Of a stretch of DNA of 13,753 bases, positions 1 through 13,753 are shown piece by piece. Location: IMG/VR virus record IMGVR_UViG_3300029181_000068, positions 1 to 13,753 of that record; one strand, written 5' to 3'. Position numbers and translations under genes: made by a program. Within the stretch, counting starts at the first letter, position 1; every line of letters begins with the position of its first letter. Below the pieces are notes generated by a model. It saw only the letters and a list, made by a program, of their open reading frames with translations. It had not been told where the DNA came from and ran no database searches. The DNA is from a virus (Duplodnaviria; Heunggongvirae; Uroviricota; Caudoviricetes).

Positions 1-1928
1 TTACTGACAATGCCGAGCTTCTCCAGCAACCAGGAAACGCCGGATTTCAGGGAGTCCAGCGGATGCATGACCATATTCAGCCCTTCCGCCAGTGCCTCCC
101 CGAATCGCCGCCCCATTGCCGCTGCGCTCTGCAGTTCGGCAGAGGTCGACTTAACGGGCGTCAGCAGATCAGTAAACCAGCCCCACAGCGCCTGCACTTT
201 GTCGCCAATCCACTGGAACACGGGCTTAAGCGGTTCGAACGCTGCACTGATGGGACCTGCCGCCGCTTTGAATCCTTCCACCACGCCACCGAGAAATGCG
301 GTGATGGGTTGCCAGTATTTCCAGACAACCAGCGCCACGCCCGCCAGAGCAGTAACCACAAGACCTATCGGACTGAGCAGAGCACCTAACAGACCAGATA
401 TGGCATACAGGGCAACGCGCAGCATCGCCAGTGGACCAGATGCCAGTACTCGCAGCACCGTGCCTGCGGCGGTCAGTCCACCGCGCAGTACCGCCAGAGG
501 ATTCATAAACATCACAGCAACAGCACGTAAACCGGATAATCCAGACCGCAAAAGTGCAACCGGCGCACCTGCTACAGTTTTCAGGACATTTCCCGTCAGT
601 GATGCCGTGCGGCGCAAAGACGACAACGGCGCAGTAAGTAAACCTGCGGCGTTGCCCGATGAAGCAAGCCCGCGTCGCAGCAGTGCCAGTGGTGCGCCAG
701 CCAGCCAGGACAACGCGCTGCTGGTTCGAGTTACTGCTGCCGTAACGGAAGATAACGTTTTGATACCCAACACAGAGAATCCCAGACGGATCACTGCCAG
801 CGGCCCCAGCACTGCAGCCAGCGCCACCGCTAAGGTGCCGAGGCCGACGGTAACCGCAGCCACAACAGCCGATGCTTTCATCAGTGTGCCTGTCAGTTCC
901 GGGTTAGCTTCCACCCAGCGACGCAACGCCCCCGTGACGCTTTTCACCGTGTACAGAATATCCATCAGCGGCTGGCGCAGCGTTTCGCCCAGGCTGCTGA
1001 AGGTGTTCTGCGCTCCGGTTTTGACCAGCAACCACTGCGCAGAAAGTGAATCCTTGTTAATGTCGGATTCTTTCTGCATGGAGCCAAGCGCATCATTGCC
1101 CGCTGTCAGTTTTAACTGACGCTGCAGTTCTGGCAGGTTGTTTGCCAGTTTCGCCGCGTCATCGCCAAACTCTTTACCAAACAACATAGTCATGGCAGAC
1201 AGGCGCTTGTCCTGCGGCAGCGCGTTTACCTTCTCCAGCACGCGCTGGATGGTTCCCATCGCATCCTTCGTCATCTGCTTTTCAATCACTTCAGGATTGA
1301 GTTTCAGCAGATTCATCCCTTCAAAGAAACTCTTGCTTTGCATGGTGGCAATGGACAATTCACGCACCATCGCGTTTGCTGCACTGGCTGCAACCTCTGG
1401 CGCAGCGCCCAGTGTCAGGAAGGTGGAACCCAGCGCCGCCGCTTTACGATAATCCAGACGGTCAGCCACACCGCCCAGACGTTGCATCACATCAATGATG
1501 TCTGCCCCTTTCGACATGGCGTTATCATCCAGATAGTTCAGCGCATCACCGAGCTGTTCAATATTGCGGGTGGGGATTTTGTAGAGCTGGGCGATTTTCC
1601 CCAGACTTTCTGACAGTTCATCCGCTGGCAGCTCAAAGGCTGTTGCCGCCTTTGCTGCCGTACTGGCGAAGGCCAGCAGGTCACGTTTCTGATCTTCCCA
1701 GCTGTCGTCAGGGTTTGCGACGTTCATGCGCGCACCACCTTCAACCAGTGCAGCGAAGTCCACCGCACCGTTTTCCATCGGCAACTGTTCGCTGGCAGCC
1801 TTGATGGCATCCTGCATTTCATAAAAACGTGCAGTGCGGTTGCCATTATCGTCACGCAGACCATTGACCTGCTTTGCCACACCTTTCATGGCATCTTCCA
1901 TGCTGGTATAGCTTTTTACTGCCGCCAT
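1..1928 (-). CDS. Phage tail tape measure protein-like (P2 gpT-type), partial: 3' end lies beyond the window start; 5' region probably missing and fused to truncated gene I
   Basis: Minus-strand frame is open from the stop at 2058-2060 down to position 3 and continues off the window, so it is absent from the ORF track. Hand-translated at both ends: ATG at 1928-1926 gives MAAVKSYTSMEDAMKGVAKQVNG; the left edge reads ...AAMGRRFGEALAEGLNMVMHPLDSLKSGVSWLLEKLGIVS. A quicker, unverified read of the middle suggests an Ala/Gly/Leu-rich product with long hydrophobic stretches, as in tape measure proteins. The + strand ORF 10..1119 is its Ser/Thr/Pro/Arg-rich antisense shadow. Family assignment is from memory, not a search. 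Confidence 0.55.
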   Translation of the reverse strand, partial: MAAVKSYTSMEDAMKGVAKQVNGLRDDNGNRTARFYEMQDAIKAASEQLPMENGAVDFAALVEGGARMNVANPDDSWEDQKRDLLAFASTAAKAATAFELPADELSESLGKIAQLYKIPTRNIEQLGDALNYLDDNAMSKGADIIDVMQRLGGVADRLDYRKAAALGSTFLTLGAAPEVAASAANAMVRELSIATMQSKSFFEGMNLLKLNPEVIEKQMTKDAMGTIQRVLEKVNALPQDKRLSAMTMLFGKEFGDDAAKLANNLPELQRQLKLTAGNDALGSMQKESDINKDSLSAQWLLVKTGAQNTFSSLGETLRQPLMDILYTVKSVTGALRRWVEANPELTGTLMKASAVVAAVTVGLGTLAVALAAVLGPLAVIRLGFSVLGIKTLSSVTAAVTRTSSALSWLAGAPLALLRRGLASSGNAAGLLTAPLSSLRRTASLTGNVLKTVAGAPVALLRSGLSGLRAVAVMFMNPLAVLRGGLTAAGTVLRVLASGPLAMLRVALYAISGLLGALLSPIGLVVTALAGVALVVWKYWQPITAFLGGVVEGFKAAAGPISAAFEPLKPVFQWIGDKVQALWGWFTDLLTPVKSTSAELQSAAAMGRRFGEALAEGLNMVMHPLDSLKSGVSWLLEKLGIVS

Positions 1929-2356
1929 CACTGGCGCACCCATTGCCAGCCCTGCAGCCGTGGTGGTGGCTCCGGCACCTGCAATACGATCACGCACCTC
2001 CAGCGAACGGGCATATCCAGGCGAAACGTGCCCGGTGTTTCTCCGGTCTGCCACCACTCAATAATGCGGATCAGGAATCCGAACGGCTCCACCACCCGCC
2101 GCACGGCACTGGTGGTCCCTTTATGCTGATGAATATAAAAAGCATCCTTCACCACCTGGCGCTTGACGCTTTCTGTCCAGCCCTCGTCCCAGCGATCCAC
2201 AGAGAACGCCCAGGCGAGATAAGGCAGGAAACTGACCGGACAGGTTGCCGGATTCCACAAATCACGAAGCGGCACCTGCAGATCAGAAATCCCGCTGCAG
2301 GTTTGCGCCAGTCGGCGCTCCAGTGGTGTTGAACCCGGTGGCAGCAGACTATTCAT
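1928..2356 (-). CDS. I: Phage tail protein I (P2 gpI-like), apparently C-terminally truncated or frame-disrupted after about residue 114
   Basis: ORF of 142 aa. N-terminal ~114 aa (MNSLLPPGSTPLERRLAQ...LWNPATCP...LAWAFSVDRWDE...GTFRLD) resembles P2 gpI as I recall it (~176 aa). The last 28 aa (MPVRWRCVIVLQVPEPPPRLQGWQWVRQ) are Trp/Pro/Arg-rich and look like out-of-frame translation. Stop TGA at 1928-1930 overlaps the ATG at 1928-1926 of the downstream tape-measure frame. Confidence 0.75.
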   Translation of the reverse strand: MNSLLPPGSTPLERRLAQTCSGISDLQVPLRDLWNPATCPVSFLPYLAWAFSVDRWDEGWTESVKRQVVKDAFYIHQHKGTTSAVRRVVEPFGFLIRIIEWWQTGETPGTFRLDMPVRWRCVIVLQVPEPPPRLQGWQWVRQ

Positions 2357-2945
2357 CCGTTCCTCCGTTGGTTACGCTCCACTGCGTACATGATGCCGCC
2401 TGTGTTTTGTTCAGGACCACATCCGCCAGAGGAGAAGCCAGCTCCACACGCTGCACCCCCTCAACATGCAGGGCGGCAAAGATGGCGCTACGGCGAATAT
2501 CCCGACCAAGACGCGTCTGACTGGCGATGTACTTCTGCAGGCTGGCTTTTGCCGCTGCCATTACCGGCTCTGCTTCCGGTCCAGGATAGAGAAAAATGGT
2601 GGCTTCCACGCGATACGGGATGATTTCTGCGCTGCGAACCGTAAGACGGTCAGCCACCGGGCGGACGTTCTCACTGTTCAGAGCTTTTTCCACCACGTCC
2701 AGCAGGTCTTTTTCTGCAGTTCCATCGCCTTCGCGGCTAAGGACAGTCAGCACCACCTCTGCAGGTGCCGGGCTGGTTGCACTGGCATCCGCCACCCGAC
2801 CGTCGGCGCTTCGGGCATGAAATTCATAAGCTGCAGTTGGCCCCGCAACAGAAAGCCCTTCAAAGGCTGCAGGTACACGCAGGCGCAACGCTTCATCGCT
2901 TTCCATCACAGCTGCAACGGGCGGCAGCCTCCAGTACAAACTCAC
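2349..2945 (-). pseudogene. J: Baseplate assembly protein J (P2 gpJ-like), C-terminal ~2/3 only; N-terminal third missing
   Basis: 198-aa ORF whose track start is a GTG. The sequence PPVAAVMESDEALRLR...FEGLSVAG...HARSADGRVAD...RPVADR...LYPGPE...RLGRDIRRSAIFAALHVEGVQRVELASPLADVVL...TDE matches the C-terminal part of P2 gpJ (~302 aa) from memory. No native N-terminus or RBS. Overlaps the 3' end of the V fragment in another frame. Confidence 0.8.
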
Positions 2946-3357
2946 TGGTTTTCATGATGATGTTGTCAGCAGCCTCAATGACCATTGATTTGATGCCCCT
3001 GACATACCAGCGCCCGGTGGCGGGTTCGTATTCAAACCAGCCACCGTCAGGATGTTCTGTCACGCAGGCATCCGCCGACGTCGACGGTGGTGCGAACTGA
3101 TTCGAATAGACAGCGGGCAGCGCAAAGGCGGTTTCCAGATTGCCGCCCAGACTCAGCAGCACCACCTGCTCACCTTCCGATGGTCGCCACCATGTACGGG
3201 CATTCCCGGCACGCAGCGTCAGCCAGCTGATCCAGTTGGTTTCAAGCTCGCCCGTTTTCACCCGGCAAAGCCAGTTTTCCCTGTCCACTTCGGTGACTAC
3301 CCCTGTGCGGATCAGGTTGGTGATAAGGCGCATGATTTCGGTTAATTGTGCGTTCAT
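2893..3357 (-). CDS. V: Baseplate assembly/spike protein V (P2 gpV-like), N-terminal fragment ending in a premature stop
   Basis: 154-aa ORF with ATG at 3357-3355. N-terminus MNAQLTEIMRLITNLIRTGVVTEVD...RVKTG...WISWLTLRAGNARTWWRPSEGEQVVLLSLGGNLETAFALPAVYS has the gpV OB-fold pattern. Shorter than P2 gpV (~211 aa); its reading frame stops at 2893 inside the region where the J frame opens. Confidence 0.75.
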   Translation of the reverse strand: MNAQLTEIMRLITNLIRTGVVTEVDRENWLCRVKTGELETNWISWLTLRAGNARTWWRPSEGEQVVLLSLGGNLETAFALPAVYSNQFAPPSTSADACVTEHPDGGWFEYEPATGRWYVRGIKSMVIEAADNIIMKTSEFVLEAAARCSCDGKR

Positions 3358-3372
3358 AGGGAAAGGTTGCCA

Positions 3373-3930
3373 TCAGGGGAAGAAAGCCGGATTGCTTTCA
3401 CTCAGGACAGCGCCAATCGCTTTATGCAGACGCGCCCGTGACTGGTCCGGCATATCCAGACCGTCTGTCAGCTCCAGCGTCTGCAGCAACAGATCGGCAT
3501 CAAAGCCGGTGGCGGCAAGCATTGCGCTCTGCGCCGCGTCTGCCATTTCCTCTGCCAGCACGGTCTGCACATTGCGATTACCCAGCGGCATCACCCAGCC
3601 ATGACGCAGGGCGTGACGCCCGATCTCCAGCGCCCCGGCATAATCTCCGGCATCAATGCGCCACAGCATCACGTACATCAGCACGTCATCCTGTTGAGCG
3701 CCTCCGGCAGCCAGGACACCCTCCGCCCAGGCGGCGTACTTCGGCAGCAGCTCCACCTTGATTTCCGCTTTTTTGACCGTGGACTGAACGCCCTTGAGAC
3801 GGCGGCGGTCTTCCGCCAGTTGCAGCAGCATCAGGTCATAGCCCGACGCGTGGCGAACGCTGCCGCCCTCGCGGGCGGCCTGTTCAGCCTGAACGCGCAG
3901 GCGATGCTGCCGTGCGGGACTCAGGCTCAT
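3373..3930 (-). CDS. M: Terminase small (endonuclease) subunit, P2 gpM-like; possibly 3'-truncated
   Basis: 185-aa ORF, ATG at 3930-3928, 3 nt after the N stop (TAA 3936-3934). Resembles P2 gpM (QDDVLMYVMLWRIDAGDYAGALEIGRHALRHG, LELTDGLDMPDQSRARLHK). Shorter than the ~247 aa I recall for P2 gpM. Stop at 3373-3375 is only 15 bp from the V start. Confidence 0.8.
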   Translation of the reverse strand: MSLSPARQHRLRVQAEQAAREGGSVRHASGYDLMLLQLAEDRRRLKGVQSTVKKAEIKVELLPKYAAWAEGVLAAGGAQQDDVLMYVMLWRIDAGDYAGALEIGRHALRHGWVMPLGNRNVQTVLAEEMADAAQSAMLAATGFDADLLLQTLELTDGLDMPDQSRARLHKAIGAVLSESNPAFFP

Positions 3931-3933
3931 GAA

Positions 3934-4992
3934 TTACGCTCCGGTTTCTGCTGCTGCGGCGCTGAAGTCGCCAATCTGGATGTTTTCCACCAGTGCGGCG
4001 CAGCGGTAGTCCTCAACCACATAGGCTTCGTTAACGGATTCAAAGTTTTCAATCCGGTCACGTTTCGGGTTGTCGATAACTGAGCGGCGACGGGTGTCTT
4101 CCTGCCAGTAGATGGACAGGTTATCCAGACGGGTGATCAGCAGTGCATTCGGCGGGAAGAACGGCGCACGCACGGCCTGCAGGCCACCCATGCGTTTCTG
4201 ACTGATGATCATATCGGCAGCCAGTTTTTCACTGTTTTCCTGCTCTTTGTTGACCAGCGGGAAATACTTGTCAGACAGCAGTTCACGACCGCAAATCACC
4301 ACCAGATCGTCATCGTCCTGGTAGACCACATCGATAAGCTCATTGACGGCATCCATCACCACGGCGTCCAGGTTGGCATATTCGCCACCTTTCCCGACTT
4401 TCACCGCACCCGGTGTGGTTTCACCGCCCGTGGTGGTGCTGCCCATGACGTGATCCGGTGCATCTTCACGGATTTTCTGCAGCCAGCCTTTGTTCACATC
4501 CTGCAGCAGCGGGTTTTCGCTACGGTTGGAGGTTTTCGCACGCTTCACGCCGTTAAAGCCGATCATGATGCGGTCCAGAGCCTGACGTTTCACGATGGCG
4601 TCACGGATGCGCACCTGGAAATCCTGAAACTTCGCCCACAGGTCCAGCTTCGCGTAGGTCAGCACCGTGTCAAAGTTGGTCTGCTCGCATTTATATTCCA
4701 CATCGACCATCAGCGTCGGATCGACAGGTTCACGCTCTTTCGCGGTGGTGTCAGTGGTTCCGGCAATGGTGCTGCCAACTCCCAGCCCCAGCAGCTGACC
4801 GGACTGCTCAGTCACTGGCGTGACGTTAATCAGCGTCAGGAAAGCGGCGGACTGCTGGATCTGGTCTTCCAGCGTCTGCTGCACAGACGGCTCCACGGTG
4901 AACTTGCTGGACAGTTCTTCAACTGCCACACCGTTCAGACGCGCCAGCTGCTGCAGGTAAGCGTTAAAAGCAAAGCGGGTATTCTTCTTCAT
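3934..4992 (-). CDS. N: Major capsid protein, P2 gpN family
   Basis: 352-aa ORF. Near-collinear resemblance to P2 gpN as recalled (FNAYL...LNG, KFTVEPSV, IGFNGVKRA, NPLLQDVNKGWLQK, KVGKGG.YA.LDAVVMDA, DKYFPLVNKEQENSEKLAADMIISQKRMG, ENFES...YVVEDY). GGAG upstream of ATG 4992-4990. Confidence 0.95.
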   Translation of the reverse strand: MKKNTRFAFNAYLQQLARLNGVAVEELSSKFTVEPSVQQTLEDQIQQSAAFLTLINVTPVTEQSGQLLGLGVGSTIAGTTDTTAKEREPVDPTLMVDVEYKCEQTNFDTVLTYAKLDLWAKFQDFQVRIRDAIVKRQALDRIMIGFNGVKRAKTSNRSENPLLQDVNKGWLQKIREDAPDHVMGSTTTGGETTPGAVKVGKGGEYANLDAVVMDAVNELIDVVYQDDDDLVVICGRELLSDKYFPLVNKEQENSEKLAADMIISQKRMGGLQAVRAPFFPPNALLITRLDNLSIYWQEDTRRRSVIDNPKRDRIENFESVNEAYVVEDYRCAALVENIQIGDFSAAAAETGA

Positions 4993-5008
4993 CGGGTTTT
5001 GTGCTCCA

Positions 5009-5842
5009 TCAGCAATTGGTCAGAGTGTCAGCGGGGGCGTTACCGCCTGTTGCACGCTGGCGGTAGTCCTGGCGACTGTCTTCATGACTCAGCTTGTCCA
5101 CCAGTTCGTTAAAGGCGGTTTGCTGTGCCTGCAGGGCAGTCTCCAGCTCAGACAGGCGTTCTTCCTGCTCAGACAGGGATTTTTCGGTGCGTGCGCTCAG
5201 GTTCTGCTGCTCAGTGGCGACCAGCTCCACGGCCTTATGCACATCAGAGAACCGGGCGTCATCGGACTGCTCTTTTTTGGTAAACAGCGCCGTGACGCGG
5301 GCAAACAGGGACGGTTTGTCGTCCTGGATTTCTTCCAGTTCGATCACCGTTTCCTCTGCAGCGGTAAAGAGATTGGCAGGATTCTGCTTGCGGTTTGCCA
5401 GCGGGTTATGGGCTGCACTGGCGCTGAATGTCAGCATTTCCGTACCCAGACTGGCAGGGTCATCAGTGGCAGCCAGGCCGACCAGATAGGCTTTGCCCGT
5501 ATCAGCGAACTTCGGGCTGACTTCCATAGAGGTGAATAATTTCTGGCCTTTTTTCACCAGTTCCACCAGGGACTCCGTTGGCTCAACGTCGGCATACAGC
5601 GCCATCTTGCCTGCCAGCGGACCTTCCGTGATTTCTTCAGCAAACAGCGCCGTCACCTTGCCGTAGCGGTTAAAGGTGCTGTCCGGCAGATAAGACTTGA
5701 TGTGCTCAAGGTTAATCAGCGCGGTATACACCGCCGGGTTGTAGCTGGCTGCCATCTGTTCCAGCCATTCACGCTGGATTTCGCGTCCGTCGGTGGTGGC
5801 ACCTTCCACCCCGATGCGAAAACGCTTTGCTTTCACTGTCAT
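5009..5842 (-). CDS. O: Capsid scaffolding protein, P2 gpO family
   Basis: 277-aa ORF. Resembles P2 gpO (FRIGVEGATTDGREI, INLEHIKSYLPD, TSMEVSPKFADTGKAYLVGLAATDDPASLGTEML, ASDDARFSDVHKAV, C-terminal ATGG...TNC). GGAG 8 nt upstream of ATG 5842-5840. First gene of the leftward head operon. Confidence 0.95.
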   Translation of the reverse strand: MTVKAKRFRIGVEGATTDGREIQREWLEQMAASYNPAVYTALINLEHIKSYLPDSTFNRYGKVTALFAEEITEGPLAGKMALYADVEPTESLVELVKKGQKLFTSMEVSPKFADTGKAYLVGLAATDDPASLGTEMLTFSASAAHNPLANRKQNPANLFTAAEETVIELEEIQDDKPSLFARVTALFTKKEQSDDARFSDVHKAVELVATEQQNLSARTEKSLSEQEERLSELETALQAQQTAFNELVDKLSHEDSRQDYRQRATGGNAPADTLTNC

Positions 5843-5920
5843 GAGCCGTGCTCCGTTAGAAAAAACTTACTGGAGCCTTATGGTTGCGGTGATGGGGGCA
5901 GTGAAACAATGCGCGGTATT

Positions 5921-5938
5921 TGTACCGACAACCACACA
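5921..5938. promoter_or_regulatory. TGT-N12-ACA dyad (Ogr/Delta-type late activator box) in the divergent O/P late promoter region (5843-5984)
   Basis: Exact TGTaccgacaaccacACA in the 142-bp gap between divergent O (minus) and P (plus). P2-family late promoters carry TGT-N12-ACA centred near -55. The spacing fits the leftward O promoter best (dyad centre ~5929; plausible -10 CATAAG on the minus strand near 5876-5881; O ATG at 5842). Confidence 0.45.
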
Positions 5939-5984
5939 AACCGCAGGCGGGGAAAGCCTTCATTCAAGGCTGTAGGTTTGTGCC

Positions 5985-7751
5985 ATGAACACCACACTGA
6001 CACCCGCAGATCTCGATCCCCGTCGGCAGGCCATGCTGCTGTACTTTCAGGGATACCGCGTAGCCCGCATTGCTGAAATGCTGGGCGAGAAAGTTGCAAC
6101 CGTTCACAGCTGGAAAAAACGCGACAAGTGGGGTGACTATGGGCCGCTGGATCAGATGCAGCTCACCACCGCCGCACGCTACTGCCAGCTCATTATGAAG
6201 GAGCACAAAGAAGGGAAAGATTTCAAAGAGATTGACCTGCTGGCGCGCCAGTCGGAGCGCCATGCGCGGATCGGCAAGTTTAACAATGGCGGCAACGAAG
6301 CCGACTTAAACCCTAACGTCGCCAACCGCAACAAAGGCCCGCGCCGTCAGCCGGAAAAGAACGTTTTCACCGATGAACAGATTGAGAAGCTGGAAGAAAT
6401 CTTTTATTCCTCCATGTTCAACTACCAGCGCCACTGGTGGGAAGCCGGAAAAACCAACCGCATCCGCAACCTGCTGAAGTCACGCCAGATCGGCGCGACC
6501 TTTTACTTTGCCCGTGAAGCCCTGATTGACGCCCTGCTTACCGGACGTAACCAGATTTTCCTTTCTGCCAGTAAGGCACAGGCGCACGTCTTTAAGCAGT
6601 ACATCATCGACTTTGCCAAAGAAGTTGAGGTGGAGCTGAAAGGCGATCCTATGGTGCTACCTAATGGCGCAGCATTGTACTTTCTCGGCACCAACGCCCG
6701 TACGGCGCAGAGCTACCACGGCAACCTGTACCTTGATGAATATTTCTGGATACCGAAATTCCAGGAACTGCGCAAAGTTGCCTCCGGGATGGCCATTCAC
6801 AAGAAATGGCGACAAACCTACTTTTCCACGCCGTCCAGCCTGACCCACAGTGCCTATCCGTTCTGGTCCGGTGCGCTGTTTAACCGGGGCCGCGCCAAAG
6901 CGGACAAGGTGGATATTGACCTGACCCACAGCAATCTTGCGCGCGGCCTGCTCTGCCCTGACGGACAGTACCGCCAGATAGTCACTGTGGAAGATGCGGT
7001 GCGCGGCGGCTGTAACCTGTTCGACCTCGACCAGTTGCGCATGGAGTACAGCCCGGACGAATACCAGAACCTGTTGATGTGCGAGTTTGTGGACGATCTC
7101 GCGTCCGTGTTTCCGCTCAGCGAGCTGCAGGCGTGCATGGTGGACAGTTGGGAAGTCTGGACCGACTTTCATGCACTGGCCCTGCGCCCGTTTGGCTGGC
7201 GCGAAGTCTGGATCGGATACGACCCGGCGAAAGGCACGCAAAACGGCGACAGCGCCGGATGCGTGGTGGTGGCACCGCCAGCCGTGCCGGGTGGTAAGTT
7301 CCGCATTCTTGAGCGTCACCAGTGGCGCGGGATGGACTTCCGCGCCCAGGCTGACGCCATCAAAAAACTGACCGAACAGTACAACGTGACCTATATCGGT
7401 ATCGACTCAACCGGCGTTGGTCACGGGGTTTACGAGAACGTGAAAGCGTTTTTTCCTGCCGTCCGGGAGTTTGTCTACAACCCCAACGTTAAAAACGCCC
7501 TGGTACTCAAGGCCTACGACATTATTAGCCACCGCCGCCTGGAGTTTGACGCAGGGCACACCGACATAGCGCAGTCCTTTATGGCAATCCGTCGCGCCAC
7601 CACTGCCAGCGGCAACCGCCCGACCTATGAAGCCAGCCGCAGCGAAGAAGCCAGCCACGCCGATCTGGCCTGGGCAACAATGCACGCACTGTTTAATGAA
7701 CCGCTGCAGGGCGAGTCCGCCAATACCAGCAATATTGTGGAGATTTTTTGA
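5985..7751 (+). CDS. P: Terminase large (ATPase) subunit, P2 gpP family
   Basis: 588-aa ORF; P2 gpP is ~590 aa. Resembles the P2 terminase ATPase subunit (MLLYFQGYRVARIAEMLGEK, KSRQIGATFYF Walker A-like, NLYLDEYFWIP, IGYDPA...GDSAG). Stop TGA at 7749-7751 overlaps the Q ATG. Confidence 0.95.
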   Translation: MNTTLTPADLDPRRQAMLLYFQGYRVARIAEMLGEKVATVHSWKKRDKWGDYGPLDQMQLTTAARYCQLIMKEHKEGKDFKEIDLLARQSERHARIGKFNNGGNEADLNPNVANRNKGPRRQPEKNVFTDEQIEKLEEIFYSSMFNYQRHWWEAGKTNRIRNLLKSRQIGATFYFAREALIDALLTGRNQIFLSASKAQAHVFKQYIIDFAKEVEVELKGDPMVLPNGAALYFLGTNARTAQSYHGNLYLDEYFWIPKFQELRKVASGMAIHKKWRQTYFSTPSSLTHSAYPFWSGALFNRGRAKADKVDIDLTHSNLARGLLCPDGQYRQIVTVEDAVRGGCNLFDLDQLRMEYSPDEYQNLLMCEFVDDLASVFPLSELQACMVDSWEVWTDFHALALRPFGWREVWIGYDPAKGTQNGDSAGCVVVAPPAVPGGKFRILERHQWRGMDFRAQADAIKKLTEQYNVTYIGIDSTGVGHGVYENVKAFFPAVREFVYNPNVKNALVLKAYDIISHRRLEFDAGHTDIAQSFMAIRRATTASGNRPTYEASRSEEASHADLAWATMHALFNEPLQGESANTSNIVEIF

Positions 7752-8776
7752 TGGGAAAGAGTAAGAAAAACCGCGCTGCGGCGACGAATCAGCTCAAGCA
7801 TAAAAGCCAAACTTCAGCCGAAGCATTCAGCTTTGGCGATCCCGTTCCTGTTCTGGACCGCCGTGAACTGCTGGACTATGTGGAATGCGTACAGATGGAT
7901 CGCTGGTATGAGCCGCCCGTCAGCTTTGACGGACTGGCACGAACCTTCCGCGCCGCCGTGCATCACAGCTCACCAATTGCGGTGAAATGCAACATTCTGA
8001 CCAGTACCTACATCCCTCACCCGCTGCTCAGCCAGCAGGCTTTTTCACGTTTTGTGCAGGACTATCTGGTATTTGGTAACGCCTACCTGGAGAAACGCAC
8101 GAACCGCTTCGGTGAAGTTATCGCCCTTGAGCCTGCTCTGGCAAAATACACCCGACGCGGGTTAGACCTGGATACCTACTGGTTTGTGCAATACGGTATG
8201 ACAACCCAGCCGTATCAGTTCACGAAAGGCAGCATTTTTCATCTGATGGAACCTGACATCAACCAGGAGATCTACGGCCTACCAGGTTATCTTTCTGCCA
8301 TTCCGTCAGCCCTGCTCAACGAGTCCGCCACGCTGTTCCGCCGGAAGTATTACATTAACGGCAGCCATGCAGGCTTCATCATGTACATGACCGATGCCGC
8401 GCAGAACCAGGAGGATGTGAACAACCTCCGCAATGCGATGAAAAGCGCCAAAGGCCCTGGCAACTTCCGCAACCTGTTTATGTACTCGCCTAACGGCAAA
8501 AAGGACGGGCTTCAGATCATCCCGTTGTCAGAAGTCGCGGCGAAGGATGAATTTCTGAACATCAAGAACGTCAGCCGTGATGACATGATGGCGGCACACC
8601 GCGTACCGCCTCAGATGATGGGAATTTTGCCGAATAATGTTGGGGGTTTTGGTGATGTGGAGAAGGCGAGCTGCGTCTTCGTAAGAAATGAACTATTACC
8701 ACTTCAAAAAAGATTCATGGAAATAAACAGATGGCTTGGTCATGAAATTATAAATTTTGAAATATATACATTATAA
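7751..8776 (+). CDS. Q: Portal (capsid portal vertex) protein, P2 gpQ family; last ~30 codons AT-rich
   Basis: The ORF track starts at TTG 7748; the likely start is ATG 7751 (MGKSKKNR...), overlapping the P stop as TGATG. 341 aa; P2 gpQ is ~344 aa. Portal-like throughout (GNAYLEKR, YWFVQYG, GLPGYLSAIPSALLNE, YYINGSHAGFIMYMTD, MMGILPNNVGGFGDVEKA). Codon usage turns AT-rich from ~8680 (AGA, CTA, TTA, ATA codons). Confidence 0.95.
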   Translation: MGKSKKNRAAATNQLKHKSQTSAEAFSFGDPVPVLDRRELLDYVECVQMDRWYEPPVSFDGLARTFRAAVHHSSPIAVKCNILTSTYIPHPLLSQQAFSRFVQDYLVFGNAYLEKRTNRFGEVIALEPALAKYTRRGLDLDTYWFVQYGMTTQPYQFTKGSIFHLMEPDINQEIYGLPGYLSAIPSALLNESATLFRRKYYINGSHAGFIMYMTDAAQNQEDVNNLRNAMKSAKGPGNFRNLFMYSPNGKKDGLQIIPLSEVAAKDEFLNIKNVSRDDMMAAHRVPPQMMGILPNNVGGFGDVEKASCVFVRNELLPLQKRFMEINRWLGHEIINFEIYTL

Positions 8777-8781
8777 AACCC

Positions 8782-8804
8782 AACGGCATCACAATGATGC
8801 CGTT
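8782..8804. terminator. Hairpin between convergent Q and the PIN-like gene; probable intrinsic terminator for the minus-strand gene
   Basis: AACGGCATC-acaat-GATGCCGTT: 9-bp perfect stem with a 5-nt loop. On the minus strand it is followed by GGGTTTTAT. No T-run follows it on the plus strand. Confidence 0.4.
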
Positions 8805-8813
8805 ATGAACGAA

Positions 8814-9875
8814 TTAATATTCAAAATTATTTTCTTCAATAGAGAACTCAATCCCTCGGGATAACTTATCAATATTCACATCAAATGCGATATCTGTTAA
8901 TTCACCATCCTCGATTTCATACATAACTTCAATTTCAATATCGAAACTAATCTCTTGAACTTCAGTTCGTGTGGTTGTCTCCATTGGAATCATTACTTTA
9001 TCTTCGCTATCCCAATACCCATTATTAAAGTCTGGACCAGAAACAGTAACTTCAAAATCTACAGAAACAGAGAAGGTCGCTAGACAATAATTATTGTCAA
9101 TCTTAATTATTGATGGTTCAAAGTCATCAATATTGACGACTTCAAATGAATCCAATTCAGCGTCTTCCCAAGTTGAAACGTTATATCCATCGGCATCATT
9201 GAGTTGGGCAATTACGTCCGCTCTTATGTCTTCACGTTTGCTTTCGATAAACTGCATCAATTTATTACTTAATTCGTTTGTATGCGTATTGTATTCACCT
9301 AGAAACTTATCAAGTGAATCAATTTGATGAAGATTGTTTTTACCATCACAATAATTTTTTAAGTCACTATCCTCAGAAATGATATACACATCTTCATCAT
9401 TAACAAATCGCTCTACCGCAGCTAAAGTGATTGCATCAGGAAACTCACTTTTTTTCTTATTTTGCCCAAATGGTGGTTCTTTGCCAAAGTATTTATCTAA
9501 AACCTCATTAAGATCTATCACTTCTATTGTAGCTAATTTGGCGTGACATCCTTTCAAAAAATCATCAAAAACTTTTTGTGCTGCTTCGTGAATTTCATGT
9601 TCGTTAAATTGCTGAAAAAAACCATGGAGCGGTCCATTATCAATACTATTCAAAAGCCTAGCTTTTCTTTGTACTGTGTTTATAGCCTGCAGAGCATCCT
9701 TTATTGATTCCTCTATTTTACCTTTTACTTCTCTCTCTACAACTGTAGTTGTAATTAAGACTAAATCACCTTTCGCACATAATTCATGGAAAGCTTTAAA
9801 TGCTACCCCCTCAAAATGAAGACCAGCCTTTACGTACGTTTGTGTGTCAATAAATACCTTATTTGTTTTAAGCAT
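8814..9875 (-). CDS. PIN-like nuclease-domain protein with an acidic C-terminal domain; candidate stand-alone defence or abortive-infection gene
   Basis: 353-aa ORF in AT-rich DNA. ATG 9875-9873 with AGGA 5 nt upstream. N-terminal ~170 aa carry PIN-like acidic motifs (KVFIDTQ; LVLITTTVVEREV; EFPDAITLAAVERFV; VYIISEDSDL). C-terminal ~150 aa are very Asp/Glu-rich with alternating hydrophobics (FDIEIEVMYEIEDGELTDIAFDVNID). Domain call is by motif pattern only. Confidence 0.7.
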   Translation of the reverse strand: MLKTNKVFIDTQTYVKAGLHFEGVAFKAFHELCAKGDLVLITTTVVEREVKGKIEESIKDALQAINTVQRKARLLNSIDNGPLHGFFQQFNEHEIHEAAQKVFDDFLKGCHAKLATIEVIDLNEVLDKYFGKEPPFGQNKKKSEFPDAITLAAVERFVNDEDVYIISEDSDLKNYCDGKNNLHQIDSLDKFLGEYNTHTNELSNKLMQFIESKREDIRADVIAQLNDADGYNVSTWEDAELDSFEVVNIDDFEPSIIKIDNNYCLATFSVSVDFEVTVSGPDFNNGYWDSEDKVMIPMETTTRTEVQEISFDIEIEVMYEIEDGELTDIAFDVNIDKLSRGIEFSIEENNFEY

Positions 9876-10001
9876 ACTAATCCTAATAAGTTTTAAGATC
9901 CGCTACAATTGTTTATGTTTATTTTTTATCAATAATCATACGTAGTTAAGATTATCCATGTCGAAAAATTAAATCAACTTCAATTTATCCTTAAGCGCGC
10001 G

Positions 10002-10020
10002 CTCGTATCCCCGCCACGCC
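10002..10020 (-). other. Candidate cos site (19-nt cohesive end, P2/186-like)
   Basis: Minus strand reads GGCGTGGCGGGGATACGAG followed by CGCGCGCTTAAGG. The P2 left end as I remember it is GGCGAGGCGGGGAAAGCAC then TGCGCGCTGACGG (about 24 of 32 matches; position 5 T as in phage 186). Orientation fits P2: cos, then Q and P transcribed toward cos. It is a GC-rich patch inside otherwise AT-rich accessory DNA. Confidence 0.5.
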
Positions 10021-10382
10021 TGCCCGCTTTATGTAGTGGTTTTCATGCACCTGCATGACATAAGCAAAAGCACGCCAGTTCTGGCTGACTTCAGCAAAAA
10101 CGATCCTCAAACGATCATGCGATCTCATGCGTCATAGTCATGCGCTGCCAAGGGAAGCGTAAATCCGTATCTGAATGACTGCTGAAAAGCGAATCATACG
10201 GGTTTACAAAGATGAAAGTTCGCTGTGAGCGAGAAGCGAACCTTGCAACTTTGTTGGCACAGTTTTAACACCAATTTTTTGAGGATAGCTAGAAAACTTG
10301 TGGCATAAAGGATCAGTTTCCCGATCGAACTTTTTATCAAGAAGGGCTCATAGCAATCGCCAGAAGAAGTGATGTTAAAGTA

Positions 10383-10411
10383 TTGAGCTCGGCGTTAAGA
10401 TTAAATAAATT
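10383..10411 (+). promoter_or_regulatory. Candidate sigma70-type promoter for the SIR2-HerA operon
   Basis: TTGAGC, 17-nt spacer, TAAATT, about 35 nt upstream of ATG 10445 (RBS AAGGA at 10435-10439). Weak match in AT-rich DNA; other candidates exist. Confidence 0.25.
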
Positions 10412-10444
10412 ACAGACTAATCCAATGTTTTGTGGAAGGATAAG

Positions 10445-11488
10445 ATGGCAGTCAAGCGCGCATACTACGGTAACGATAGTGACCGAGACTACTTAGAGCG
10501 GATATTTCAGTCAGCTAACATTAACTTTCTCATCGGATCAGGTGCATCCCTCCCAGCGATTAAAGTACTGGGGACAATCGAAACGGATCTTCAGCAGCTT
10601 ATTAATGATGAACAGGAAGATGAATACTTAAGGATGGCAGCTGACTTTTTGTCAGATGTTTGGCTACCTCATGAATGCATGTTGAAGCGCGGCTACGGCA
10701 CCCCCTTCGCACCTCAGGTGATCACCGATTTGGAATGTACCCGTGCAAATTATGATGCATTTATGTCTTCTCTGGAAAAGATACTGACCCGCCGCCGAAC
10801 TGGCCTACTTCCGAGGCGTATTAACGTTTTTACAACTAATTATGATTTATTCATCGAAGAAGCTGCCACACGTAATAACAATATTCTTTTTAATGATGGA
10901 TTCAATAGAAGAGCAAGTATTTTGGGAGATGCGGAATTTGATGCGGGTAGCTTTAATCATTCTGTAAGTGCAACCGGAAATCTGTATAATTATAAAGTTG
11001 AGCTTCCTACTGTTAACCTTATAAAACTTCATGGTTCGCTCTCTTGGCAGCATTCTAAAGGGAAAATCATTTATCGTATTGCAGATATTAAGCCGCTTGA
11101 CTTTCCCACCCTAGCCGAAATGAAAGGATGGGTACTTGCTCATGCACTTATTCTTCCACGTAAGGAGAAGTTTAAAGAGACTCTACTACAGAACGTTTAT
11201 TATGATTTACTGAGAACCTATTCCAACGAGCTTGATAAAGAAGCAACTTTACTAATTGTCTTTGGGTTCTCGTTTGCTGATGAGCACATTGAAACGATAA
11301 CTAAAAAAGCCCTGCGCAACGCCACCCTGAAGCTACTGATCTTTGCTTTCGATGAGGCCAGTGTTAACGGCTTTATGGAGAAATTTCGGGATTACTCAAA
11401 CGTAGAGATTATTTATCGGCCGGGAAGAAATGTTGATTTTCCGGTAATGAATAACATTATCACGTGCTATCTGGGAGGCTCGAGATGA
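10445..11488 (+). CDS. SIR2-like (sirtuin-fold) NAD-binding protein, defence-associated type
   Basis: ORF track starts at TTG 10430; the likely start is ATG 10445 (MAVKRAYYG...), 5 nt after AAGGA. 347 aa. Sirtuin-like motifs: Gly-rich loop FLIGSGAS (10532-10549), VFTTNYDLFIEEA (TQN-like) and IKLHGSLSW (catalytic His region). AT-rich codon usage. Stop TGA at 11486-11488 overlaps the HerA ATG. Confidence 0.9.
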   Translation: MAVKRAYYGNDSDRDYLERIFQSANINFLIGSGASLPAIKVLGTIETDLQQLINDEQEDEYLRMAADFLSDVWLPHECMLKRGYGTPFAPQVITDLECTRANYDAFMSSLEKILTRRRTGLLPRRINVFTTNYDLFIEEAATRNNNILFNDGFNRRASILGDAEFDAGSFNHSVSATGNLYNYKVELPTVNLIKLHGSLSWQHSKGKIIYRIADIKPLDFPTLAEMKGWVLAHALILPRKEKFKETLLQNVYYDLLRTYSNELDKEATLLIVFGFSFADEHIETITKKALRNATLKLLIFAFDEASVNGFMEKFRDYSNVEIIYRPGRNVDFPVMNNIITCYLGGSR

Positions 11489-13344
11489 GCAGGCATTTTA
11501 CTGAAGAGGAAGCGGTGCTCCGTATAGGCGAAGTCTGTGAGGTTTCTGGACGCGCTGTGACAATTTTGGTCGATAAAAACAAAAATCTCAGTGACTTGTT
11601 TTATCAGGGAAAAGTTCTAAGAAATGTATCAGTGGGTAGCTTCATTGAGATCAAAAAAGGTTTCATGAGCCTGATCGGCAAGGTTGAAGCGGAACGAATC
11701 ATTGAGGAAAAACATCTCGCTGGGAGCGGCAGTGATGCCTGGCGATATCGGCGATACCTGACCTCTACTCTTACGGGTTACATTGATCGTACTGGTTGCT
11801 TCATTGGTGGTTCGCGTGAACTACCTCTCATCGGCAATGAAGTCTTCGTGGTAACTGAAGAGATGATACAGACGGTTCATCAGATAGCTGATGCAGACGA
11901 AACTGTAATGAGGTTTACTCGTACAGATCTTGAAGATATTGAAATTGCACTACCAATCAATGGTCTTATTAATTCCCACATTGCCATTTTCGGTAATACA
12001 GGCAGCGGAAAGTCAAATACCCTAGCCGCGCTATACAAAGCAGGTATTGCCCAAGTTAAACATATTCTCGGCAACCACTTTAGTGAAAGATGCAAATTTA
12101 TTCTATTCGACTTTAATGGAGAATATACTGCCCCACGCTGTATTACTGACGAGAAGACGGTTTATAATCTCAACACGCACCATGCAAATGGTGACAAACT
12201 TCCTCTACCCAGAGAGGTTCTACTTGAGCATGATATGCTCTCAGTTCTAACCGATGCAACAGACAAAACACAGAAACCTTTCCTGAAGAGAGTTCTTGAG
12301 TTTCGCAAGAAAGTGATGACTGCTGATAATCCTCTTGAGTTTATGCGCAATATCCTGAAGAAAAAAGTCAGACAAAATCTCTTTAGTAGCGACAAACCCA
12401 AATGCGATACTATAAATCAGTTTCTTAGCCCAATTTTCAAAGATGACCCAGAACTTATATCTGATCTTGAGTATCATTCAACTGCATATAAATGGAAATT
12501 GAGGGGTGGTAGTATTTTCAATACAGAAGCTGATACTGAGCGCTCCTATCTATTCAGTCTTGCAAGCAATTTTTCATTTAAAACTGATATGATTGAAGAA
12601 CTGTTGGACTTTATGTACTTACAGTTAATACAGGAATATTTATCTAACAAGTCTAACCCTGAACATATTTCACCAGTTATAAATAGAATGAGTGCTAACC
12701 GTAAAGATATAGCCAAAATATTTGATACTTCCGGACAGTCTGACTTTTGGGGTGAACATAATTTCACGGTTGTGAATCTAAATATGGTTAATATAACCAT
12801 GAAAAAAACGCTTCCTCTTTTGATAGCCAAGTGGGCTTACAATATGAAGAAAATGTCTACAGAGAAATCTACACTGCACATCATTATAGATGAAGCCCAC
12901 AATATTTTGTCTAATACTTCTTTTCGGGAAACGGAAAGTTGGAGAGATTATCGTCTGGAAACTTTTGAGGAAATCATAAAGGAGGGGAGAAAATTTGGAG
13001 TTTTTATCACAATTTCCAGTCAACGCCCTAATGATATATCGTCGACAATCATATCCCAAGCACACAATTATTTTATTCATCGCCTTATTAATCAGAATGA
13101 TCTGTACGCAATTGAAAAATCAGTATCATATATAGATCGACTGACTGAAGAGTCGATTCCAACGCTATCTACAGGAACCTGTATTTTTAGTGGTATCGTC
13201 TGCCCCATGCCGCTCAAATTAAGGGTAGCTGAACTTCCAATTGAAGAAAAACCTAAGAGTAATACTATTTCCTTCAACGATTTAATACCTGAGAGGCTGG
13301 GAGAGGATGACCAGAGCGACTACGTAATAACCAGCCCTCACTAA
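11485..13344 (+). CDS. HerA-like (FtsK/HerA superfamily) ATPase, partner of the SIR2-like protein
   Basis: ORF track starts at GTG 11464 inside the SIR2 gene; the likely start is ATG 11485 (MSRHFTEEE...), with GGGAGG 6 nt upstream and an ATGA overlap with the SIR2 stop. 619 aa. Walker A FGNTGSGKSNT (11992-12015), Walker B LHIIIDEAH (12880-12900), and a downstream FITISSQRPNDIS motif. AT-rich. Confidence 0.9.
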   Translation: MSRHFTEEEAVLRIGEVCEVSGRAVTILVDKNKNLSDLFYQGKVLRNVSVGSFIEIKKGFMSLIGKVEAERIIEEKHLAGSGSDAWRYRRYLTSTLTGYIDRTGCFIGGSRELPLIGNEVFVVTEEMIQTVHQIADADETVMRFTRTDLEDIEIALPINGLINSHIAIFGNTGSGKSNTLAALYKAGIAQVKHILGNHFSERCKFILFDFNGEYTAPRCITDEKTVYNLNTHHANGDKLPLPREVLLEHDMLSVLTDATDKTQKPFLKRVLEFRKKVMTADNPLEFMRNILKKKVRQNLFSSDKPKCDTINQFLSPIFKDDPELISDLEYHSTAYKWKLRGGSIFNTEADTERSYLFSLASNFSFKTDMIEELLDFMYLQLIQEYLSNKSNPEHISPVINRMSANRKDIAKIFDTSGQSDFWGEHNFTVVNLNMVNITMKKTLPLLIAKWAYNMKKMSTEKSTLHIIIDEAHNILSNTSFRETESWRDYRLETFEEIIKEGRKFGVFITISSQRPNDISSTIISQAHNYFIHRLINQNDLYAIEKSVSYIDRLTEESIPTLSTGTCIFSGIVCPMPLKLRVAELPIEEKPKSNTISFNDLIPERLGEDDQSDYVITSPH

Positions 13345-13357
13345 TTAACAAAGTGCT

Positions 13358-13377
13358 GAAGCGGTAACGACCGCTTC
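13358..13377. terminator. Hairpin downstream of HerA; possible weak terminator
   Basis: GAAGCGGT-aacg-ACCGCTTC: 8-bp perfect stem, 14 nt after the HerA stop (TAA 13342-13344). No clean T-tract on either side. Confidence 0.3.
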
Positions 13378-13488
13378 TAGCACAAAGCGGACGATCACTT
13401 ATCAAAATGCCCGCCCACCTTACGCCTCGTTTCACTCGTTGCCCAAACTAGCCCCCATCAGAATGAATCCTCCTGGAGGCAACGTTTC

Positions 13489-13722
13489 TTAATGCAGCCA
13501 GCTGTCGTCTTCCCACACTTTCTGCATAATTTTCATCACTTGTTTTCTTTCTTCATCCAGTTGCAGTCCGGTCAGTTCCACACCGTTAGAGCTACCTTTG
13601 CGGATACGAATTACCGTTTTGGGATACAGGGGGCGCAGATTGCGGTAAAGCTCGGATTCAAGGGCGTCCAGGGTAGACTGGCTAATCTTCTGCTCTTTAT
13701 CGATCATTATTTCAATGCGCAT
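13489..13722 (-). CDS. DinI-like family protein
   Basis: Track ORF starts at ATG 13746; the likely start is ATG 13722-13720 (MRIEIMIDKEQ...), with GAGGTG 6 nt upstream. 77 aa. Resembles E. coli DinI (MRIEVTIAK..., ~81 aa) in length, N-terminus and acidic C-terminus (WEDDSW). Backbone-like GC content. Confidence 0.8.
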   Translation of the reverse strand: MRIEIMIDKEQKISQSTLDALESELYRNLRPLYPKTVIRIRKGSSNGVELTGLQLDEERKQVMKIMQKVWEDDSWLH

Positions 13723-13753
13723 AAAAGTCACCTCAACTGATGACATCCATTGA

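Follow-up and report, generated by a model that had tools for sequence, protein, structure and literature searches.

The window analysed here is the whole stretch of 13,753 nt that forms positions 1 to 13,753 of the viral record IMGVR_UViG_3300029181_000068 (Caudoviricetes), and all coordinates refer to it unless another locus is named. Between the portal gene Q and the cos site of the P2-like prophage in this window lies a gene of 353 codons, here called the PIN gene, which starts with ATG and is read from the minus strand, convergent with the plus-strand Q. Its GC content is 33.7%, against 56.5% in the structural genes at 1-8776, which agrees with an initial annotation made from the sequence alone that had described an AT-rich open reading frame (ORF) of 353 amino acids (aa) at this place. 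The PIN gene is an intact prophage cargo gene encoding a two-domain PIN-nuclease protein and, judging from the homologies set out below, is probably a stand-alone anti-phage gene of the DUF4935/PIN_12 family, 'Cosus-like' in type and carried as exchangeable cargo between Q and cos.

The window protein scores 91 bits (E=1.5e-25) on the Pfam profile PF16289 (PIN_12, formerly DUF4935), for which the curated gathering cut-off is 32, its residues 7-171 covering profile positions 1-171 of 172, and scans of NCBIfam and PHROGs returned no useful family for it. The DUF4935/PIN_12 family has been described as monocistronic and as bearing a C-terminal alpha/beta region without a solved relative (Matelska 2017, PMC5499597), and the window protein has the same composition, with ~350 aa, an N-terminal PIN domain, a C-terminal alpha/beta region and a monocistronic gene. 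The PIN fold is of the VapC type with four invariant metal-binding acids, D10, E49, D147 and D169, the third of which is adjoined by a conserved basic loop, GxKKKxEFPDA. Four acidic PIN motifs had been read from the sequence in the initial annotation, and they are borne out within the subfamily: among 28 homologs at 39-56% identity, D10 (FIDTQ), E49 (VVEREV), D147 (FPDA) and D169 together with D171 (SEDSD) are invariant and the loop PPFGxGKKKSEFPDA is mostly so, as are, without exception, N232, W236, G280-P281-D282, E291, E314 and E348 in the C-terminal part. A homolog search of 5.8 billion proteins gave 160 relatives which, among the matches listed, are full-length, ~355 aa long and gamma-proteobacterial.

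The C-terminal part had been described as very acidic and strand-like, and both properties are confirmed: residues 229-353 contain 26% aspartate and glutamate, carry a net charge of -28 at an isoelectric point of 4.05, and are all strand in the AlphaFold model of the window protein (predicted local distance difference test score 87.7). Together with the linker helices they are predicted by this model to form an NTF2/cystatin-like fold. When the C-terminal half alone was used as a phmmer query against 1.84 billion representative proteins, 76 hits were obtained, nearly all of them 345-385 aa long and matching at the same position. The shorter matches that were examined are PIN_12 fragments, because their starts fall inside the PIN domain, and a single repetitive protein of 998 aa is probably spurious. 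The earlier suggestion of a sensor module, if taken to mean a shuffled domain, is thus not supported, the examined hits being PIN_12 proteins or fragments of them save for the 998-aa protein; because the C-terminal domain is found fused to PIN_12 only, it and the PIN domain form a fixed unit.

The initial annotation had taken the protein to be unassigned and to belong to no named defence family, which needs correction, as it is a PIN_12 protein with a full-length homolog in Cosus and is itself entered in published tables of P2 cargo. Cosus, the product of the mobile integron cassette brc24, consists of one PIN_12 protein alone (Kieffer et al., bioRxiv 10.1101/2024.07.02.601719; Science 2025). 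It provides complete resistance to T7 at low and high multiplicity of infection (MOI), has a fitness cost of 11% under strong expression and is predicted to form a hexamer; T12A, D14A or D96A lowers the resistance by a factor above 10^5 (bioRxiv 10.1101/2024.07.02.601719). The Brc24 sequence was rebuilt from the supplementary DNA table, an error-ridden PDF, and the mutagenesis primers, and this rebuild was then replaced by the database proteins P0121 and P0132 (382 aa, DUF4935), which are 88% identical to the error-laden rebuild and which, with 335 relatives, made up the Cosus family set. Not all published Brc24 mutant labels agree with the sequence, 'D6A' altering D7 and 'E42A' altering E38 (supplement, bioRxiv 10.1101/2024.07.02.601719). 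Comparison of the window family with the Cosus family by hhalign gave a probability of 99.1% (E=6e-19) over 311 columns at ~26% identity, the match running from residues 2-330 to Cosus residues 6-356 and so covering both domains. In pairwise BLASTP with Brc24 (P0121), 235 aa of the PIN domain and linker aligned at 29% identity (E=3e-17), and the C-terminal domain gave no significant alignment. On these profile comparisons the window protein is identified as a full-length, distant homolog of Cosus/Brc24; because identity is only 26-29%, the two are placed in separate subfamilies. Residues D14, D153 and D177 of Cosus correspond to D10, D147 and D169 of the window protein, and Brc24 E52, which aligns with the canonical motif-II glutamate, is absent from the published mutants. 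Some proteins of the Cosus family (P0211, P0217, P0220 and P0225; 462-467 aa) combine an N-terminal cold-shock domain (PF00313) with PIN_12, a fusion that hints at RNA or single-stranded DNA as substrate.

A second PIN_12 precedent is DS-5 (working name PN12), a two-gene DefensePredictor system consisting of WP_021513008 and the PIN_12 protein WP_021513009, the defence of which is lost with D7A or E44A in the PIN_12 protein and also depends on the partner protein (DeWeirdt et al., PMC13092281). Within residues 6-210 alone, the PIN domain of the window protein aligns with that of DS-5 by BLASTP (23% identity over 200 aa, E=2e-7) and by hhalign (95%). When the window subfamily is aligned jointly with Cosus, DS-5B and two plasmid PIN_12 proteins, members of the Cosus family share 20% identity with the window protein, and D10, E49, Y129, F130, F136, P146, D147, A148 and D169 are invariant and K141, K142, D289, D292 and E348 nearly so. 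That the PIN gene is a defence gene, as initially proposed, is consistent with the measured anti-phage activity of its Cosus/Brc24 and DS-5 homologs. The window protein itself has also been tabulated as P2 cargo: WP_000920990, WP_063106696 and WP_000920989 bear the label "PIN_12" in a published list of the gene orders at the gpA-gpQ hotspot of P2 (Rousset et al. 2022, PMC9122126, Table S5); WP_063082207 is a further accession of this protein. The three validated P2 systems named in that paper exclude the window protein, and neither 'PIN' nor the window-protein accessions occur in its other supplementary files (PMC9122126).

The neighbours of the PIN gene are P2-like phage genes by Pfam (Table 1), and the position of the gene is that of an insertion. 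A block of 58 bp upstream of it is invariant among the window, phage Cartapus, phage 813R9 and one E. coli prophage; it is annotated as the cos site in Cartapus, and the 19-nt left cohesive end of P2 (cosL) aligns to positions 10002-10020 within it. In P2, the 167 bp from cosL (1-19) to the Q stop codon (187) are non-coding and hold the terminator tQ, whereas the distance from the cosL equivalent to Q in the window is ~1.2 kb. Since P2 has non-coding DNA alone at this place, the PIN gene is an insertion between Q and cos, in keeping with the initial annotation. It lies between Q and cos and its presence varies from one relative to the next, and so it has the features of cargo of the P2 gpA-gpQ hotspot. 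The corresponding interval holds unrelated genes, likewise convergent with Q, in phage Cartapus (DUF4145; L012, 1695-2393) and phage 813R9 (Hypoth_Ymh; L013, 2738-3889), and the Q-cos interval of P2-like phages is thus a one-gene cargo site in its own right.

The PIN gene also has its own expression signals, as had been noted from the sequence. Its ribosome-binding site and a strong terminator hairpin were both found again. The stem is followed by GGTTTTATAA, and the T-tract lies on the minus strand, past the stop codon of the PIN gene. The hairpin, which occupies the position where P2 has tQ according to the P2 annotation, is a predicted intrinsic terminator for the PIN gene; terminator-like sites number six in the region against 1.2 expected and are fivefold commoner than in shuffled sequence. 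The case for promoter-like DNA is mixed. The best sigma-70-like candidate is well placed, but seven promoter-like matches in the region compare with 6.6 by chance, and such DNA is weak evidence since these sites are as frequent as chance would have them. An Rfam scan and a repeat search around the PIN gene yielded nothing relevant.

Table 1. Features of the PIN gene and of the neighbouring P2-like genes (window coordinates).
Feature	Position	Strand	Basis or remark
PIN_12/DUF4935 coding sequence, 353 aa, stop included	8814..9875	-	ORF list, translation, Pfam PF16289
N-terminal PIN domain, residues 1-186, with long helical insert and PPFGxxKKKSEFPDA loop	9318..9875	-	
Helical linker, residues 187-228 (H188-199, H202-212, H214-227)	9192..9317	-	AlphaFold2 secondary structure
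Acidic strand-rich C-terminal domain, residues 229-353, with conserved motifs STWED and GPD and conserved D-x-x-D-K loop (D289, D292)	8817..9191	-	
Ribosome-binding site AGGA, 5 nt 5' of the PIN gene ATG	9881..9884	-	Direct sequence reading
Best sigma-70-like promoter candidate TCGACA-18-TATGAT, 10/12 matches, ~60 nt 5' of the ATG	9935..9964	-	Promoter scan
Hairpin in the gap between Q and the convergent PIN gene, stem of 11 bp, T-rich tail	8781..8805	.	Terminator scan
Conserved cos block bounding the PIN gene upstream region	9995..10052	.	Alignment of Cartapus, 813R9 and E. coli prophage; P2 left end
Q, portal (Phage_portal)	7748-8776	+	Pfam; convergent with the PIN gene
P, terminase ATPase	5985-7751	+	Pfam
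O, scaffold	5009-5842	-	Pfam
N, capsid	3934-4992	-	Pfam
M, small terminase	3373-3930	-	Pfam

Relatives of the PIN gene recur at the Q/cos position of other P2-like prophages, a point that had been raised initially. Of 1276 complete E. coli genomes with a match to the region, 36 have the gene next to Q, at 98-99% DNA identity, and a homolog of 54% identity occupies the same slot in a P2-like prophage of Pantoea. What lies past cos in these E. coli genomes varies, being a PifA-like NTPase, an HNH protein or no further cargo. The E. coli alleles are identical to that of the window in one locus (L001) and differ by 1-3 codons in two others (L002, L003); that of E. coli 2452 (L002, 7215-8276) has a stop two codons early (E352*), no other codon being different. 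Elsewhere the family is likewise carried on mobile elements, several members lying beside known defence systems. The initial view of the PIN gene as single-gene cargo in a prophage accessory hotspot is borne out. Of the more distant homologs, one comes after the antiterminator gene in a lambdoid prophage of Aeromonas, one in P. aeruginosa has both AbiTii and a filamentous prophage as neighbours, one adjoins Septu in a Salmonella integrative and conjugative element, and others occur in an integrative mobilisable element of Pseudomonas and on conjugative plasmids. In Vibrio coralliirubri an island of ~12 kb (L007, 1-13561) contains Lamassu (LmuB with CTD6 and MC2 proteins), a PIN_12 homolog and Gabija; this island is bracketed by two pieces of a thymidylate-synthase gene, as if inserted in or beside thyA. 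A homolog of 41% identity in the P2-like Enterobacter phage ENT4 lies between the tail genes gpS and gpV on the opposite strand (L021, 3995-5059), so that a slot within the late operon serves the family for cargo as well. On the IncX4 plasmid pEC111 (L010, 4914-7056), a PIN_12 protein of 393 aa forms a two-gene operon with an AbiH-family gene ~2.3 kb from mcr-1; identical tblastn matches to this protein are present on several other plasmids of E. coli, Salmonella, Shigella and Klebsiella, the neighbourhood having been examined for pEC111 alone.

Beyond cos, the window carries a complete SIR2-HerA defence system, encoded on the plus strand by genes at 10430-11488 and 11464-13344 that overlap by 25 nt and match PADLOC with E=6e-211 (SIR2) and E=6e-267 (HerA). 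With SIR2-HerA across cos from the PIN gene, there is therefore defence cargo on both sides of cos. Past SIR2-HerA follows a DinI-like gene on the minus strand (13489-13746; Pfam E=8e-23), the usual gpA-side marker of the P2 hotspot. At the other end of the window, the tape-measure gene (1-2015) lacks its 5' part and is joined directly to fragments of I, J and V, followed by M up to position 3930. The tape-measure piece is 99.9% identical to annotated T genes, the J fragment covers only positions 112-254 of its profile, and L, X, holin, lysozyme, R, S, W, tail fibre, sheath and tube genes are missing. The host prophage is a deletion remnant, and the arrangement at 1-3930 was seen in no complete E. 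coli genome. A GC-rich ORF of 369 aa antisense to the tape-measure gene (10-1119, plus strand) has no Pfam match and is most likely a chance ORF.

If the PIN gene is an anti-phage gene of the Cosus type, it would be expressed in the lysogen from its own promoter, and its product would act as a Mg2+/Mn2+-dependent endonuclease upon infection by another phage. VapC-type PIN domains are ribonucleases and, because of this and because some Cosus relatives carry a cold-shock domain, the most likely substrate would be RNA, namely phage transcripts or host tRNA or rRNA. The acidic C-terminal domain with its conserved D-x-x-D-K loop would regulate the nuclease, either through oligomerisation, as in the predicted Cosus hexamer, or by masking the basic loop and active site until a phage cue is received. 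The initial annotation had envisaged a toxic nuclease and abortive infection, which is not what the closest tested relative, Cosus, displays; as Cosus protects at high MOI, a simple abortive-infection toxin fits poorly and, by analogy, protection may be direct rather than achieved by cell suicide. A bolder version of this mechanism, tentative at best, would make the protein a sensor and effector in a single polypeptide, in which the very acidic NTF2-like domain with its D-x-x-D-K loop, sitting on the basic KKK loop as a nucleic-acid mimic, keeps the nuclease inactive in cis until a phage component frees it, giving direct, non-suicidal immunity, with the one-gene site between Q and cos travelling together with cos.

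Several observations weigh against an anti-phage role of the PIN gene. PADLOC, proposed initially as a check, does not recognise the protein, as no family of PADLOC-DB v2.0.0 (2023), a library older than Cosus and DS-5, matches it at E up to 1. No phenotype for the gene or its subfamily was found in the literature, coverage of which was partial, so that an earlier test is possible. Because the host prophage is a deletion remnant, expression of the PIN gene in it is only predicted. The few E. coli alleles show no synonymous and 1-4 non-synonymous codon differences, too few to speak for selection. With identity to Cosus of only ~26-29%, specificity and even function could differ between the two proteins. 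The DS-5 precedent depends on a partner for which the window has no counterpart. In Cosus itself, D153A and D177A were made with no defect reported, and the motif-II glutamate was not mutated (bioRxiv 10.1101/2024.07.02.601719); since the reported mutants miss E52 and D153A and D177A have no reported defect, PIN catalysis is not settled for Cosus.

Other explanations have to be set beside the anti-phage reading. The PIN gene could encode a selfish toxin of the stabilising or addiction kind, or a ribonuclease for general stress, that helps to retain the prophage and has no anti-phage role, to which the VapC-like PIN fold, the 11% fitness cost of strongly expressed Cosus and the persistence of the gene in a heavily deleted prophage remnant would all be suited. 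However, neither flank holds an antitoxin-like ORF, the family is monocistronic according to Matelska 2017, the protein, with its fixed extra domain, is three times as large as VapC, and anti-phage phenotypes exist in two homologous systems, all of which makes such a toxin unlikely. The protein might instead serve the phage, as an anti-defence factor using its acidic domain as a nucleic-acid mimic or by acting on satellites or relatives that share cos, which is considered quite improbable. That the PIN gene works only with neighbouring cargo, forming one multi-gene system with SIR2-HerA across cos, is very improbable. The two do adjoin each other in the window, the PIN_12 protein of DS-5 requires a partner, and PIN_12 and AbiH form an operon on IncX4 plasmids, but the PIN gene and SIR2-HerA are transcribed in opposite directions with cos between them, the latter already constitutes a complete known system on its own, Cosus acts alone, and the identical or nearly identical PIN genes of E. 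coli prophages (L001 to L003) are accompanied by different cargo or none. As these E. coli relatives carry other cargo or nothing past cos, the PIN gene is independent of SIR2-HerA.

The gene has already been catalogued in the P2 hotspot (Rousset 2022) and hence is not fundamentally new; it is a divergent branch of the Cosus-type PIN_12 proteins. If active, it would represent a second, divergent branch of single-protein PIN_12 defences of this type. The fixed combination of a PIN nuclease with an acidic domain of predicted NTF2-like fold, conserved across subfamilies, offers a compact model of how a nuclease may be kept safe without an antitoxin, and the short Q-cos interval of P2-like phages emerges as a separate cargo slot. 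The practical gain is modest, in that a further candidate becomes available to defence-annotation tools, by which the PIN gene is at present overlooked.

Among known systems, Cosus is the closest counterpart. Both are encoded by a single gene for ~350-380 aa and share the PIN_12 domain, a GxKKxEFPDA loop and, behind a helical linker, a C-terminal domain that is acidic and rich in strands, and both reside on mobile elements of gamma-proteobacteria. The carriers differ, the window gene being cargo of a P2-like prophage and Cosus an attC cassette, D171 of the window protein is not conserved in Cosus, and phage resistance has been measured for Brc24, whereas it is predicted by analogy for the window subfamily. 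DS-5 shares a homologous PIN_12 domain, in which the catalytic aspartate and glutamate are required, and is also located in the P2 gpA-gpQ hotspot. In contrast to the PIN domains, the C-terminal halves of the DS-5 PIN_12 protein and the window protein show no sequence alignment, and the DS-5 partner, with its DUF5830 and AcrIF4-like domains, is missing from the window: a tblastn search of the window with WP_021513008 gave a best E of 1.2, and no ORF adjoins the PIN gene. VapC resembles the window PIN domain in fold, at a sequence identity of 9-17%, but the window protein differs in its long helical insert and in an extra domain of ~165 residues. No VapB-like antitoxin gene accompanies it, the 120 bp upstream running into cos without an ORF. 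With old, tin and the Rousset systems, which are likewise P2 hotspot cargo, the PIN gene has in common the gpA-gpQ location, the AT-rich composition and the variation between similar prophages; it differs in lying on the Q side of cos and not on the A side.
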